A stretch of DNA of 64,000 nucleotides, taken from assembly GCA_002506085.1 (NCBI GenBank), contig DAWV01000017.1, positions 2,602 to 66,601 on the forward strand. The letters are read 5' to 3'. Made by a program: the position numbers and the translations under genes. The stretch comes from Methanocorpusculaceae archaeon UBA425 (GTDB lineage: Archaea; Halobacteriota; Methanomicrobia; Methanomicrobiales; Methanocorpusculaceae). Below are positions 31,819 to 55,043 of the stretch, in pieces. Position 1 is the first letter of the stretch. Each line of letters begins with the position of its first letter. The notes below the pieces were generated by a model. That model was given only the letters and a program-made list of their open reading frames with translations, ran no database searches and had not been told where the DNA came from.

Positions 31819-32006
31819 TGCGGGCTGCTCCGAAGGAGCGGCCTCAGCGGAGCAAATCTTTGATTTGCGACTGCGGGGTGAGCCGAAGCAGACGACCTCA
31901 ACTGAGGCGGACTGCCACGAAGGGGCAGGCTTAGCTGAGCAAGGCTTTGCCTTGCGACCAAGTTTTCGAAGGAAACTTGCGACTGCGGGCTGACACGCAG
32001 TGGCGG
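31819..32006 (+). repeat. Modular palindromic intergenic repeat, copy A
   Basis: Modules TGCGG...AGC(G/T)GAG-CAA[hairpin]TTGCGAC; hairpins GCAAATC-TTT-GATTTGC, GCAAGGC-TTT-GCCTTGC, CAAGTTT-TCGAAGG-AAACTTG are shared with the 53.6 kb and 58.1 kb copies. Confidence 0.85.
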
Positions 32007-49456: not shown

Positions 49457-49651
49457 AATCAGTATTCTGCCCGCCGCCTGCAGGCCCGGGATAGCAGAGT
49501 CATACAACTATTCCCGTCCCGGACGACAGCAGTCATTATGACAATTTTACGAATTTCTTCAGCACTTAAGACCACGACATATGGTTGATGGGAAGGACGT
49601 AAACGGCAACTAAATCTTTTCGTGTTAGTACAAATCAGCTGTGTGATTTCC

Positions 49652-49739
49652 GGATGTACTTCGGTTTCGTGTACGGGATTCTTTTTGATGGTCGTATCAT
49701 CACACGGAAACTCGGAAAATAAAAAAGAATCGTCTGGAT
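49652..49739 (+). repeat. Second intergenic repeat family, uninterrupted copy
   Basis: GGATGTACTTCGGTTTCGTGTACGGGATTCTTTTTG...CGTATC|ATCACACGGAAA...AAAGAATCG.CTGGAT; homologous to 53966-54121. Confidence 0.8.
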
Positions 49740-52161: not shown

Positions 52162-53568
52162 ATGACTGAGATTATCCATAATCCGCTTTACCAGAAACTC
52201 CTGCTGTTAGCTGTGGGTGTCGCCGTATTCATGGATGCTCTTGACGGTTCGGTTGTTAATATCTCTCTCCCGGTCATTGCCGCGGATTTTGGAACCGACG
52301 CAGGGACAGTTGCCTGGGTGAGTGTCTCCTATCTTCTGGTTATTGCGGGTCTCCTTCTTACATTTGGAAAACTCTCTGACTGCGGGTATGTCAGAATTAT
52401 TTTTATCGCAGGGTTTGTTGTATTCACTCTCGGGTCGGTCGTCTGCGGGTTATCACCAAACCTCACGGTCCTTATCGCCTCACGGGTTTTTCAGGGAGTA
52501 GGAGCTGCGATGATTGCTGCCTCGGCCCCGATGCTCTGTGTAAAATTCCTGCCTATGAATATGCTCGGCGTTTCCCTGGGTGTATTGACAGCGGCAAGTT
52601 CAATCGGATTTGCCGTGGGTCCTGCGATTGGCGGCGTTATTACCGCATTTCTCTCCTGGCACTGGATATTTTTCCTCAATATTCCGATCGGCATTTTCGC
52701 GGTGCTGTTTGCCGTAAAAATAATCCCGCGGTCTGTCTCAGTGGATAAATGTGCTTTCGATTTCGCCGGGGCATTCGCTTTATTCTGTATGATGGCATCT
52801 GGTGTTTTTGCGCTGGAACGTCTCCCTCACCTCGGGTTTTTGAGTCCGGTAATTATTTTTTCAGCTGGTATCTGTGTGGTCTCGCTGATTCTGTTTATCC
52901 GGTTCGAACTGAGAAGCAGGCATCCTATTCTGAATATCAGGGTGTTTGCAAAATGGCCGCTTACGTTGACGATTACGGCATTTTTAATTCTTCAGCTTAC
53001 GAATGCAGGGCTGGTTTATCTTCTTCCGTTCTATCTGTCGGCAGGTATGAATTTTGATGCAGCGGTTAGCGGTATTTTCCTCATTCTGCCTCCGGTTATT
53101 ACCGCAATTCTCAGCATTCCTTTCGGGAAATGGTCTGATAATACCGGGCGGCGCGGATTTGCTGTCGCGGCATGTGTTTTTCTCGCTCTGACGAATGGAG
53201 TTTATGCGCTGATTGTTCCGGAATGGGGAATTATTCCGCTGATTCTTTCTCTCGTTATGATGGGTCTTATCTGGGGTATTGGCGGCGGACCTGTTTCCAG
53301 CAGAATTGTTGAGCAGATGCCGGACGATGAGAGGGGGACCGGGTCTTCGCTGATGATTACCTGTATGTATTTTGGAGCCTGCGTAGGAACTGCTCTTTAT
53401 GCCTCGATATTCACGGTTCTGACGTCGGGTGCCGGGGGTATTCTCTCGTTTGCGGATCTGGATTATGCGGTGTTTATGTACGGGTTCCATATATCGAATG
53501 GAATTGGCGCAGTTCTCGCGATTATCGCGGTGATTCTTTCTGCAGTCGTTAAAGACCCGGCGAAATGA
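52162..53568 (+). CDS. 14-TM MFS transporter (DHA2/EmrB-QacA type)
   Basis: FMDALDGSVVNISLP, GKLSD..G, SRVFQGVG, GPAIGG, W.WIFFLNIPIG. Confidence 0.9.
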   Translation: MTEIIHNPLYQKLLLLAVGVAVFMDALDGSVVNISLPVIAADFGTDAGTVAWVSVSYLLVIAGLLLTFGKLSDCGYVRIIFIAGFVVFTLGSVVCGLSPNLTVLIASRVFQGVGAAMIAASAPMLCVKFLPMNMLGVSLGVLTAASSIGFAVGPAIGGVITAFLSWHWIFFLNIPIGIFAVLFAVKIIPRSVSVDKCAFDFAGAFALFCMMASGVFALERLPHLGFLSPVIIFSAGICVVSLILFIRFELRSRHPILNIRVFAKWPLTLTITAFLILQLTNAGLVYLLPFYLSAGMNFDAAVSGIFLILPPVITAILSIPFGKWSDNTGRRGFAVAACVFLALTNGVYALIVPEWGIIPLILSLVMMGLIWGIGGGPVSSRIVEQMPDDERGTGSSLMITCMYFGACVGTALYASIFTVLTSGAGGILSFADLDYAVFMYGFHISNGIGAVLAIIAVILSAVVKDPAK

Positions 53569-53571
53569 TGA

Positions 53572-53770
53572 TGCGGGTTGGATGCGGAACGCAGACGACC
53601 TCAGCGGAGCAAGTTTTCGAAGGAAACTTGTGACTGCGGACTGCTCAATAAGAGCGGTCTTAGCTGAGGCGGGGACCTTTAGGTCCCTCAGCCGAGCAAG
53701 GCTTTGCCTTGCGACTGCGGGTTGGCGACGAAGGCGACGGTCTTAGCCGAGCAAGTCGATAGACTTGCGA
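53572..53770 (+). repeat. Modular palindromic intergenic repeat, copy B (three modules)
   Basis: Modules 53572-53634, 53635-53715 and 53716-53770; starts 4 nt after the MFS stop; hairpins shared with copy A. Confidence 0.85.
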
Positions 53771-53965
53771 GTGGTGCGGGATGTCCCTCGCGGAGAGCCG
53801 GCGGGCGATTTACCGGGAGTGGCTGCTTTCGTTGATTCGGGAAGAGTTTGGGGAGGACGGGTTGAAGGAGTTTGGGATCGGGCGTTAGCCCGGGTAGACT
53901 AACGTGCGATTAGCGTTCCCCTTCCCCCGGGGAACAGAATTGGATTTGCCCAAGCGGGATTCTTT

Positions 53966-54121
53966 GGATGTACTTTGGTTTCGTGTACGGGATTCTTTTT
54001 GCTGACCGTATCCCCGCAAGGCATTTGCCTTGCTCGGCTGAGGTCGTCCGCGTTCCGCGTCCAACCCGCCATCACACGGAAATCACACAGAAACACGGAA
54101 AATCTAAAGAATCGGCTGGAT
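53966..54121 (+). repeat. Second repeat family copy carrying an inverted 58-bp palindromic module (54013-54070)
   Basis: Flanks match 49652-49739; the insert is the reverse complement of a copy-B-type module. Confidence 0.8.
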
Positions 54122-54403
54122 GGAGCCCATGTAGTTCCCTCCCCCGTCCCCCCCCCTTTGCGCGAGCACGGGGCGAAGCCTTCGCGTACATCCGCGGTCG
54201 TATTGCGCCCCCCCCTTCTCTCCCCTTGCGCAAGCCCCCCGGGGGGGGGTGATTCCGGAATGAACGTGGTGGTTATTGACCGGGCATGAATATTTTCTGG
54301 ATAGGTACTACGCTCACCTATTTAGGTAAGAACGAAAGCCGGGTCTCTATTTTTCATCTATCCGGTCAGTCCTTCGCGCCTTTACCCGAAACACCCGGCA
54401 TCC

Positions 54404-54432
54404 GGTTAACTATATAAAAACATCTCTTAACC
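54404..54432 (+). promoter_or_regulatory. grpE-dnaK-dnaJ promoter: TATA box bracketed by an inverted repeat
   Basis: GGTTAA (54404-54409), TATATAAA (54411-54418), TTAACC (54427-54432). Confidence 0.55.
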
Positions 54433-54509
54433 ATTATATGCTCAGATAAAAACAAATATATAGAACTGCAATACAACAAATATGTGCAACAAGCGAAACA
54501 GGAATTTAC

Positions 54510-55043
54510 ATGGACAAAAACACCGAGCAGGCTGACGTTCCCCAAAACGACGCCAAACCTGCAGAAAACCAGACACCGGATGAAAAAACCGTTCCTGAAA
54601 CCACTGTTGTTGACGAACTCACTAAAAAATACGACGAACTCAATGACAAACATCTTCGTCTCGCCGCCGAATTCGAAAATTACAAAAAGCGTGTCAAACG
54701 CGACCAGGACACCGCTGTCAAATACGCAACCGAAAAGTTTGCGCTCGACATGCTCGACATACTGGACAACTTCGAACGTGCACTAAAAAGTGACGACGAC
54801 AAACTTCGCGACGGACTGGAGCAGATTCATAAACTCTACCAGTCCATCCTCTCCAGAAACGGTATCGAAGTGATCAAAATCACCAAAGGAACGCAATTCG
54901 ACCCCAACATTCATGAAGCGATTGTCAGCATCAAAGCCGACGTCCCCGAAGGGGAAATCATCGACATTGCAGCTCCCGGATACACAATCCGCGACAAAGT
55001 ACTACGTCACGCAAAAGTCGCAGTGGCGCAGAAAAAAGAATAA
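54510..55043 (+). CDS. grpE: Nucleotide exchange factor GrpE
   Basis: [31 protein letters not shown]....KVLR.AKV.V. Confidence 0.95.

Follow-up and report, generated by a model that had tools for sequence, protein, structure and literature searches.

We analyzed a 64,000-nucleotide stretch of DNA (the window), which is positions 2602-66601 of contig C3 in a Methanocorpusculum assembly that we label G000 (1.81 Mb in 28 contigs, 48% G+C). With a gene for an MFS transporter on its left and the grpE-dnaK-dnaJ operon on its right, a cluster of short repeats lies within the window (Table 1). One of these is a repeat that we call H, and a 58-bp module that comprises two hairpins (K and U) lies within it, at 54013-54070. 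Another copy of H in the window, at 49.7 kb, lacks the module (copy A). We found that H is the arm of a cassette that encodes a small nuclease, and that the module belongs to a family of hairpin arrays.

Copy A (49652-49739) reads ...CGTATC/ATCACACGG, where the slash marks the position, which we call site 1, that is occupied by the module in the filled copy. The part of copy A to the left of site 1 (H-left; 49652-49698) is GGATGTACTTCGGTTTCGTGTACGGGATTCTTTTTGATGGTCGTATC. It begins with GGATGTAC, ends with GATGGTCGTATC, and directly abuts ATCACACGGAAA, which runs from 49699. In the filled copy, GGATGTAC...GCTGACCGTATC (53966-54012) is followed by the 58 bp (CCCGCAAGGCATTTGCCTTGCTCGGCTGAGGTCGTCCGCGTTCCGCGTCCAACCCGCC) and then by ATCACACGGAAA, from 54071. 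There are 4 differences between the two copies of H-left. A preliminary description of this DNA reported a filled and an empty site with common flanks and no visible target duplication, and we agree on both points: ATC flanks the insert on both sides, yet the empty site itself is ATCATC, so this repeat pre-exists in the empty site. The same description took the module to be nearly identical to the first unit of array B, an array of hairpins in the same cluster. This is correct for the 41-nt U half (38 of 41 bases match 53573-53613), but the K halves differ.

We searched the whole assembly for exact matches to the junctions. The left junction of a filled site 1, RTC/CCCGCAAGG, has 21 copies and the right junction, CCCGCC/ATCACAC, has 18, while the empty junction, ATCATCACAC, has 51 identical copies. 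The inserts at site 1 are 55, 56, 58, 107, 108, or 127 bp, and all of them read GYATC/CCCGCAAGG...CCAACCCGCC/ATCACAC. We looked for a majority of filled copies and for heterogeneous junctions, and found neither: empty copies are the majority (51 vs. 18-21), and the junctions at site 1 are homogeneous. Any mechanism of insertion has to account for this exact set of filled and empty junctions.

In a genome-wide scan for repeats, 49645-49718 was flagged as repeated, and 53907-54235 had at least 5 repeats elsewhere in the assembly. The middle part of the filled copy (H-middle, 54071-54156) is one 9-nt word short of the consensus and does not extend to the inner end of H.

Table 1. Features of the window, and nuclease cassettes from related genomes and strains. 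Coordinates are within the sequence named in the second column.
Feature	Sequence	Coordinates	Strand	Comment
Two more K/U arrays	window	31819..31992	-	C3:34471 and C3:34583
H-left of copy A	window	49652..49698	+	outer part of an H arm; site 1, between 49698 and 49699, is empty
H-middle of copy A (ATCACACGGAAACTCGGAAAATAAAAAAGAATCGTCTGGAT)	window	49699..49739	+	truncated: without the C-rich box and without the inner end
MFS transporter gene	window	52162..53568	+	left neighbor of the repeat cluster
Array B (K/U hairpin array)	window	53573..53770	-	starts 4 nt past the MFS stop codon; C3:56371, KUKUU onward
Recurrent module (...CCCCGGGGAACAGAATTGGATTTGCCCAAGCGGGATTCTTT)	window	53907..53965	+	usual predecessor of H-left
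H-left of filled copy	window	53966..54012	+	ends with ...GCTGACCGTATC
K1U1 module in site 1 of H	window	54013..54070	+	minimal form among the K(n)U(m) arrays
K hairpin, GCAAGGC-ATTT-GCCTTGC	window	54016..54033	+	stem positions 5-7 covary among copies
U unit	window	54034..54070	+	TCGGCTGAGG, inner hairpin CGCG-TTC-CGCG, CCAACCCGCC; inner stem covaries
H-middle of filled copy	window	54071..54156	+	phased CACGGAAA/CACAGAAA words, to the C-rich box CCCTCCCCCGTCCCCC
Further recurrent module (GGGGCGAAGCCTTCGCGTACATCCGCGGTCGTATTGCGCCCCCC...)	window	54157..54237	+	strain-shared sequence starts just beyond, at ~54238
grpE	window	54510..55043	+	first gene of the grpE-dnaK-dnaJ operon; right neighbor of the repeat cluster
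H arm of cassette	L088 (G036)	498-740
Intact gene for 140-aa nuclease	L088 (G036)	815-1237
Inverted H arm of cassette	L088 (G036)	1290-1530
Cassettes with the layout of L088	L079 (G040), L080 (G011)			decayed gene
Nuclease gene between inverted H arms	L059 (strain of the window's species)	358-777		gene on - strand, for a 139-aa protein; K/U arrays lie between the gene and its arm

The host repeat is the arm of a nuclease cassette

In relatives with few copies, H is clean, and the full-length element is about 240 bp, from the outer end (GGATGTACTTCGG...) to the inner end (CACGAAAAGGGGGACAGGGG). Read from the outer end, H has GGWTGTACTTCGGTTTCGTGTA, a tail that varies, and ATCACACG, then several words of the form CACGAAA(A) at 9-12 nt spacing, then GAATCGGCTGGATGG and the C-rich box CCCTCCCCCGTCCCCC, more CACGAAA-like words, and the inner end CACGAAAAGGGGGACAGGGGCGGAGG. 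By inspection, each arm has about 8 words of the form CACGAAA(A) or CACGGAAA, 9-12 nt apart and so roughly in phase with the DNA helix. G000 has over 100 copies of H, which are mostly gene-less, and often just the outer part is left. For example, copy A is a truncated outer part of H.

On a contig from another strain, and at another locus, we found a PDDEXK_3 gene beside H-type repeats, so we searched genomes from across the genus for the corresponding family (PF13366). There are 0-20 copies per genome, and copies or their remnants adjoin H elements. The cassette is about 1 kb, and its sole gene encodes a GxxExxY / PDDEXK_3 nuclease of 139-142 amino acids (TIGR04256), with the PD-(D/E)XK fold. 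Because this gene lies between inverted H arms in G036, G040, and G011, and also in L059, which is from a strain of the window's species, H is the long terminal inverted repeat, or arm, of the GxxExxY cassette.

In G000, fragments of genes of the matching subtype are found at four contig ends (the end of C16, the start of C12, the end of C27, and the end of C28), which shows that the gene is multi-copy and breaks the assembly. Gene-less arms outnumber the gene-bearing cassettes: across the assembly, an 18-mer core of H-left occurs 134 times (at up to 3 mismatches) and the inner end occurs 52 times, as compared to at least 3 matching gene fragments. A second subtype of the nuclease, of 150 amino acids (C25:5802-6254), lies between arms of another family, which start with CATGAGAAAAAGCCAACCGCGAATC, and a third subtype is found at the ends of C10 and C19. 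Three other genomes (G002, G007, and G012) have 15-20 GxxExxY genes and no matches, or almost none, to H or to K-U hairpins. Other species of Methanocorpusculum probably carry different families of arms. PF13366 is listed as being of unknown function and has been transferred multiple times between Bacteria and Archaea (PMC3424549). In the literature that we searched, we found no paper on repeat arms of PF13366.

H-left can also grow locally by tandem duplication, since C8:740-870 of G000 repeats the outer part of H (GGATGTACTTCGGTTTCGTGTATGGGATTCTGTATGGATTTCC) in tandem, at a period of ~43 nt. Almost all of the runs of N in the assembly, and many of the contig ends, lie in repeats of the H or K-U type. 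Two contigs (L012 and L013) from a strain that is 98-99% identical, in metagenome Ga0265294, span two of the assembly gaps, and they show more repeat modules. Another gene, which encodes an 874-amino-acid protein with a signal peptide, has three copies that are ~87% identical (C10:3566-6190, C14:13005-14844, and C9:721-2695), and these lie directly beside H/K-U clusters. The repeat clusters may mark surface-protein loci that are prone to recombination. We considered the multi-copy long repeats of the assembly as candidate insertion sequences, but they are paralogous surface-protein genes.

K-U hairpin arrays and the positions that they occupy

The 58-bp module (one K hairpin and one U hairpin, or K1U1) is the minimal form of a polar family of arrays, K(1-4)U(1-3). 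The K unit is about 19 nt and has the form (T/C)CGCAA-nnn-loop-nnn-TTGC. There are about 280 perfect K hairpins in the assembly, in eight stem classes, versus about 8 in a shuffled genome. The U unit is TCAGCTRAGG, a GC-rich hairpin, and CCGC(C); CCAACCCGC (105 occurrences) is the end of the commonest last U unit. The units follow one another head to tail, not as inverted doublets or in alternating orientation. We identified at least 134 arrays, of which 122 begin with K, and transitions from K to U are far more common than those from U to K (128 vs. 18). Of the two ends of the arrays, CCCGCAAGG and CCAACCCGCC, neither is an inverted copy of the other.

Both hairpin stems evolve by compensatory change. 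We aligned 29 distinct copies of K1U1, which were extracted without enforcing complementarity. In this alignment, 89% of cells were paired, versus 77% in shuffles and 25-40% with a slid partner. There were 72 double-change cells, as compared to 26 that were expected, and the inner U stem had changes on both sides in 16 and in 11 of the copies. At one position in an outer stem, 20 of the 29 copies have C/A on the + strand, which leaves a G.T wobble on the - strand only. As single-stranded DNA, 54013-54070 would fold with -13.2 kcal/mol (+ strand) or -16.4 kcal/mol (- strand), with z = -2.7 and -3.1, respectively. There is a weak hint that the folding strand might be the GCGGGTTGG strand.

No family in Rfam matched the K or U hairpins (there was just one sub-threshold chance match). 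The U units showed no bias in orientation relative to flanking genes, with 19, 15, 13, and 12 cases across the four arrangements, given crude gene calls from open reading frames. The K-U family is restricted to part of the genus: matches are plentiful in G003, G011, G015, and G017 and sparse in G007 and G010, and the order's other genera gave none. In G000, short repeats that match 5 or more other places account for 58.6 kb, or 3.3% of assembled bases, which is a lower bound.

Besides site 1, K-U units are found at four or more other positions in H (among them sites 2, 3a, 3b, and 4), and each of these five sites has an exact empty counterpart. Site 2 (GGAAA/.../AAATCACAC) is filled in 5 copies and empty in 10. 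Site 3a (CGAAAA/.../AAATCAACG) is filled in 9 copies, and site 3b, which is 3-5 nt beyond it (...CCGCC/AACGAAA), is filled in 4; jointly, these two sites are empty in 63 copies. Site 4 (GTCCCCC/TCGCAA...) is filled in 6 copies and empty in 28. Within a single cassette, on L079, the two arms are unlike each other at site 3b. K1U1 is also found in the unrelated arm that goes with the 150-amino-acid nuclease (ACGCTC/TCGCAA...CCCGC/TCCCGAT), where the empty form is ACGGTCCCGAT. Further members of the K-U family lie elsewhere between genes, outside both kinds of arm. A multiple alignment of H copies with long flanks was too mosaic to read.

The preliminary description proposed defining the ends of the module, and its target motif, from several filled and empty pairs. 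This succeeds for the ends, which are (C/T)CGCAA... and ...CCCGC(C), but not for the motif. The flanks at different insertion positions are ATCAC, AAATCAC, AACGAAA, CACAC, TCCCGAT, or diverse unique sequence, and no fixed target word is common to the positions that we compared (the sites in H, the other arm family, and the unique flanks). Across positions, the duplications at the junctions are C, AAA, AAA, none, and TC, or 0-3 nt.

In one place (C25:5686-5760 of G000), there is nesting within nesting. There, K1U1 lies within the loop of a K-type hairpin, GCAAGTC TC[TCGCAAGG...CCCGCC]CTC GACTTGC, which is itself located in an arm of a cassette for the 150-amino-acid GxxExxY protein.

Polarity, age, and turnover at site 1

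The preliminary description favored insertion over a deletion at 49.7 kb, and across the copies of H, insertion is indeed the better-supported polarity. Site 1 is empty in all six arms that flank nuclease genes (in G036, G040, and G011), and it is also empty in the low-copy solo H elements of G036, G040, and G048. Insertion is favored because the gene-flanking arms are empty and because K-U units are found in H at five different positions as well as in an unrelated arm. Another reason is that just 1 nt of microhomology would be available to guide a precise deletion at site 1, and the deletion that we observed was imprecise.

We consider it very doubtful that the ancestral H was filled and that the empty form, including copy A, arose by deletion. 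Deletions that remove the module do occur (in L062, discussed below), and the filled form of H is old, as it is found in four species. But the single observed deletion also removed 17 + 3 flanking bases, while all 51 of the empty copies have the identical sequence ATCATCACAC, with 1 nt of microhomology as the guide for a precise deletion. Besides leaving unexplained why the six nuclease-adjacent arms and the low-copy solo elements are all empty, this logic would need an ancestor that was filled at five sites.

Site 1 is also filled in three other species (G015, G011, and G003). Among the species genomes, the sole match to the host-repeat pattern was from G015, a Methanocorpusculum metagenome-assembled genome (MAG) and the closest relative (91% identical in dnaK). 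In G011 and G003, whose dnaK genes are ~85% identical to that of G000, the junction is ...ATT/CTCGCAAGGCATTTGCCTTGC...CCCGCTC/ATCACAC. Either the filled and the empty form are both old or site 1 has been hit repeatedly, and these data fit both. Because the filled junction occurs in three other species, the insertion event probably predates the locus at 54013, and the copy there most likely inherited its module when that copy of H arose. The preliminary description's view of the module as a discrete unit is supported by the defined ends, but we saw no sign that it arrived at the 54013 locus itself. At the orthologous dnaK locus in G015, there is a different upstream gene and no repeat cluster, with homology only from position 54305 of the window. 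At the locus of copy A, only thiD is conserved in the relatives, and we found no polarizing orthologue.

We also compared strains. Contigs from other samples that encode identical GrpE are of two types, one of which is that of the window. The second type has in common with it just the ~270 nt directly upstream of grpE; farther out, it carries a gene for an 81-amino-acid protein and an H-left that is inverted and accompanied by a KKU array. Comparing window positions 54238-54510 to L048-L055, the window type continues beyond GGGGGGGTGATTCCGG with the MFS gene and the repeat cluster. Single-nucleotide polymorphisms pile up just inside the part upstream of grpE that is shared, which looks like a recombination breakpoint.

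At a filled locus on C12, upstream of a gene for an NTP-transferase, most strains match G000, with two exceptions. In L062, 76 nt are missing (17 nt from the tail of H, the module, and ATC), leaving the junction GGGATTC/ACACGG with TC as microhomology; L062 also has one K where other strains have three. In L065, the whole filled H is missing between direct repeats of CATGAGATGAA. Current turnover is by imprecise deletion, by changes in the number of K units, and by recombination between repeats. We tried in two ways to find an allele of the 54013 site without the module. A metagenome scan for the pattern gave two other copies of H, from the strain that is 98-99% identical, both empty at site 1, and look-ups of exactly matching proteins gave either the haplotype of the window or a cluster that was entirely different.

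How the module might have spread

We think it probable, although by some distance not certain, that these are nested repeats, with the K-U family lying within arms of the GxxExxY cassette, and that site 1 was filled by one insertion or a few, followed by propagation, rather than by HUH-type transposition. On one or a few occasions, site 1 of an ancestral H would have received a K-U unit, and likewise each of the other sites. The most likely route, we infer, is break repair or template switching at DNA that was stalled by hairpins; the nuclease of the cassette may supply the breaks. As copies of H multiplied, the filled and empty forms would both have been propagated and exchanged.

Several observations weigh against this scenario of one or a few old insertions. 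The filled form of site 1 is present in all three subfamilies of H (two types of right flank, and a variant with GTAAACATC at the left end), so a single ancient insertion requires later exchange between the subfamilies; repeated insertion at this specific site would account for it just as well. The module at C10:20867 differs from that of the window at just 1 of 58 bases, while the H-left parts differ at 5 of 47, which hints that the module might be younger than its H-left, but the difference is not significant. No available relative exceeds 91% identity in dnaK, and synteny at the 54013 locus is lacking in all of them. We saw no clean gain or loss of K1U1 at site 1 between the strains that we compared, so both the mobility and the mechanism rest on comparisons of paralogous copies. 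Finally, because G000 is a scaffolded MAG whose repeats contain 10.7 kb of N, every count that we give is a lower bound.

The preliminary description took the lack of a target duplication as a sign of HUH-type transposition. If so, K-U would be a non-autonomous element that an HUH (Y1) transposase carries in single-stranded form and that inserts beside a short target word, which is not duplicated, as with REP/REPIN-RAYT or the PATEs of IS200/IS605. We now think this quite improbable. The Y1 transposase family (PF01797, Y1_Tnp) is absent from G000 and from each of the 45 Methanocorpusculum genomes that we searched, including single-contig ones; as positive controls, the search gave matches in 6 of 14 known genomes. 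There is no TnpB either (one weak match to the zinc ribbon PF07282 is transcription factor TFB). It is true that the arrays lack terminal inverted repeats, that there is no duplication at site 1, that a hairpin lies near each end, and that the stem position with C/A in 20 of 29 copies hints at a single-stranded form. Also, ATCA lies to the right of ...CCCGC at sites 1, 2, and 3a and at array B; on the other strand, this is TGAT/, which recalls the TTGAT target of ISDra2. But other ends abut CACAC (site 4), AACG (site 3b), TCCCGAT (the other arm family), or diverse unique sequence, the duplications at the junctions range between 0 and 3 nt, and the changes between strains are imprecise. More broadly, missing target duplications alone should not be taken as evidence of HUH transposition. 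We also rejected a DDE-type MITE (a miniature transposable element with inverted repeats), as there are no terminal inverted repeats and no target duplication of a fixed length (at site 1, there is none).

A different role for the nuclease is also conceivable, although we consider it unlikely: it could be the mobilizing enzyme itself. It would putatively recognize and cut the arms or the K/U hairpins, and repair from filled copies would spread both the arms and the modules nested in them, in a partnership resembling homing or REP/RAYT but with a PD-(D/E)XK fold. The gene is tightly linked to the arms, as it lies between H arms in four lineages, and a second subtype lies between different arms that also hold K1U1; furthermore, the gene is multi-copy and breaks assemblies, and the repeat clusters are hot spots for rearrangement between strains. 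There is a published analogy, in the Ssn nucleases and NTS repeats (PMC11893778). However, the number of nuclease genes does not track the abundance of H or K-U (G002, G007, and G012 have 15-20 of the genes and no or almost no H or K-U), several of the cassette genes are decayed, and we saw no movement between strains. Alternatively, the hairpins could be functional elements of the host (structured RNAs, binding sites for proteins, or, like REP sequences in 3' untranslated regions, elements for termination or stabilization), which would be maintained by selection rather than by mobility. Compensatory changes do keep both stems, array B begins 4 nt after a stop codon, and the conserved base of the stem (GCAA/TTGC) suggests a protein or a structural reader. 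Yet palindromes can stay complementary without selection, the U units have no bias in orientation (19/15/13/12), the family has no match in Rfam and is limited to part of one genus, and these loci are replaced wholesale between strains whose neighboring proteins are identical. We give host function little credence.

A more elaborate version of nested repeats, which is speculative and which we would not expect to be correct, is a selfish system with three layers. The 140-amino-acid GxxExxY nuclease would read the CACGAAA words or the hairpins of the arms, its cuts would multiply the gene-less arms, and K-U would be a second-order parasite that enters these arms at preferred places and is copied by break repair without a transposase. 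If true, this would be an archaeal counterpart of REP/RAYT or Ssn/NTS, built on a different enzyme, and the filled and empty pairs in the window would be snapshots of it.

These repeats have features in common with several known systems. Like the REP/BIME and REPIN-RAYT systems of Proteobacteria (PMC2817692, PMC3116915, PMC3733652), they form hundreds of short, GC-rich, intergenic hairpins in mosaic composites, with stems that are kept by compensatory change, and they are tied to a gene for a small enzyme that they flank. They differ in that the host is an archaeon, no RAYT or Y1 gene is found in the 45 genomes of the genus that we searched, and the linked gene encodes a PD-(D/E)XK nuclease. 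Also, our units have a fixed head-to-tail order (K, then U) and stems of 4-7 bp, unlike the inverted doublets of REPINs or the alternating REPs of BIMEs. The U unit resembles REPs of the CGTC type in having GGTCGTC 5' of the inner hairpin and CCA after it, but its stems are 4-5 bp and lack A-T first pairs, while CGTC-type REPs have stems of 8-9 bp with A-T first pairs (PMC3733652). Because of these differences in the length and composition of the stem, we did not identify the U unit as a CGTC-type REP.

In the Ssn/NTS-SRM system (PMC11893778), as here, the gene for a small nuclease is framed by a short repeat, and hundreds of gene-less copies shape the dynamics of the genome. In contrast, Ssn is a GIY-YIG nuclease that acts on single-stranded DNA, not a PD-(D/E)XK protein (PF13366); the arms here are ~240 bp, with phased CACGAAA words and nested hairpins. 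The PATEs and other archaeal MITEs of Haloquadratum walsbyi (PMC3119063) are also small and non-coding, with palindromic ends but without classical terminal inverted repeats or target duplications, and are sometimes nested. However, they share their ends with IS1341/IS605-type elements from the same genomes, whereas here there is no TnpA or TnpB and no fixed target word. The NIMEs of Neisseria (dRS3 hairpins flanking RS segments; cited in PMC3733652) are similar in forming big intergenic clusters of modules that are recombination hot spots by surface-protein genes. They are unrelated in sequence and in grammar, they are not from an archaeon, and dRS3 is a site of integration for phage and IS110-type elements, which we have not seen here. 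Mosaic hairpin repeats of the REP/BIME type are familiar from bacteria. In the literature that we searched, we found no description of such mosaic repeats in Methanocorpusculum, or of any that are tied to a GxxExxY nuclease.

Overall, at least 3.3% of the small genome of a methanogen consists of such repeats, with the arm of a nuclease cassette as the largest component, and clusters of these repeats are swapped between strains with identical neighboring proteins. For PF13366, whose listed function is unknown, the nuclease and its arms provide a concrete and testable pair of protein and DNA.

We also noticed features near related loci. At C10:20820-20924 of G000, there is a second H-left with a 58-bp module (1 mismatch), beside an array of paralogous genes for membrane proteins (C10:21632-25076). 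In G015, the array of these paralogs is the direct upstream neighbor of the dnaK operon, which suggests that a repeat-mediated rearrangement separated the array from the dnaK region in G000. Just upstream of copy A, a stretch of ~100 nt (window positions 49527-49630) is 88% identical to positions 54040-54143 of contig C13 in G003, while the glycosyltransferase gene that flanks this stretch has no conservation at the DNA level. The stretch has no match in Rfam, and it could be a small gene or an RNA.

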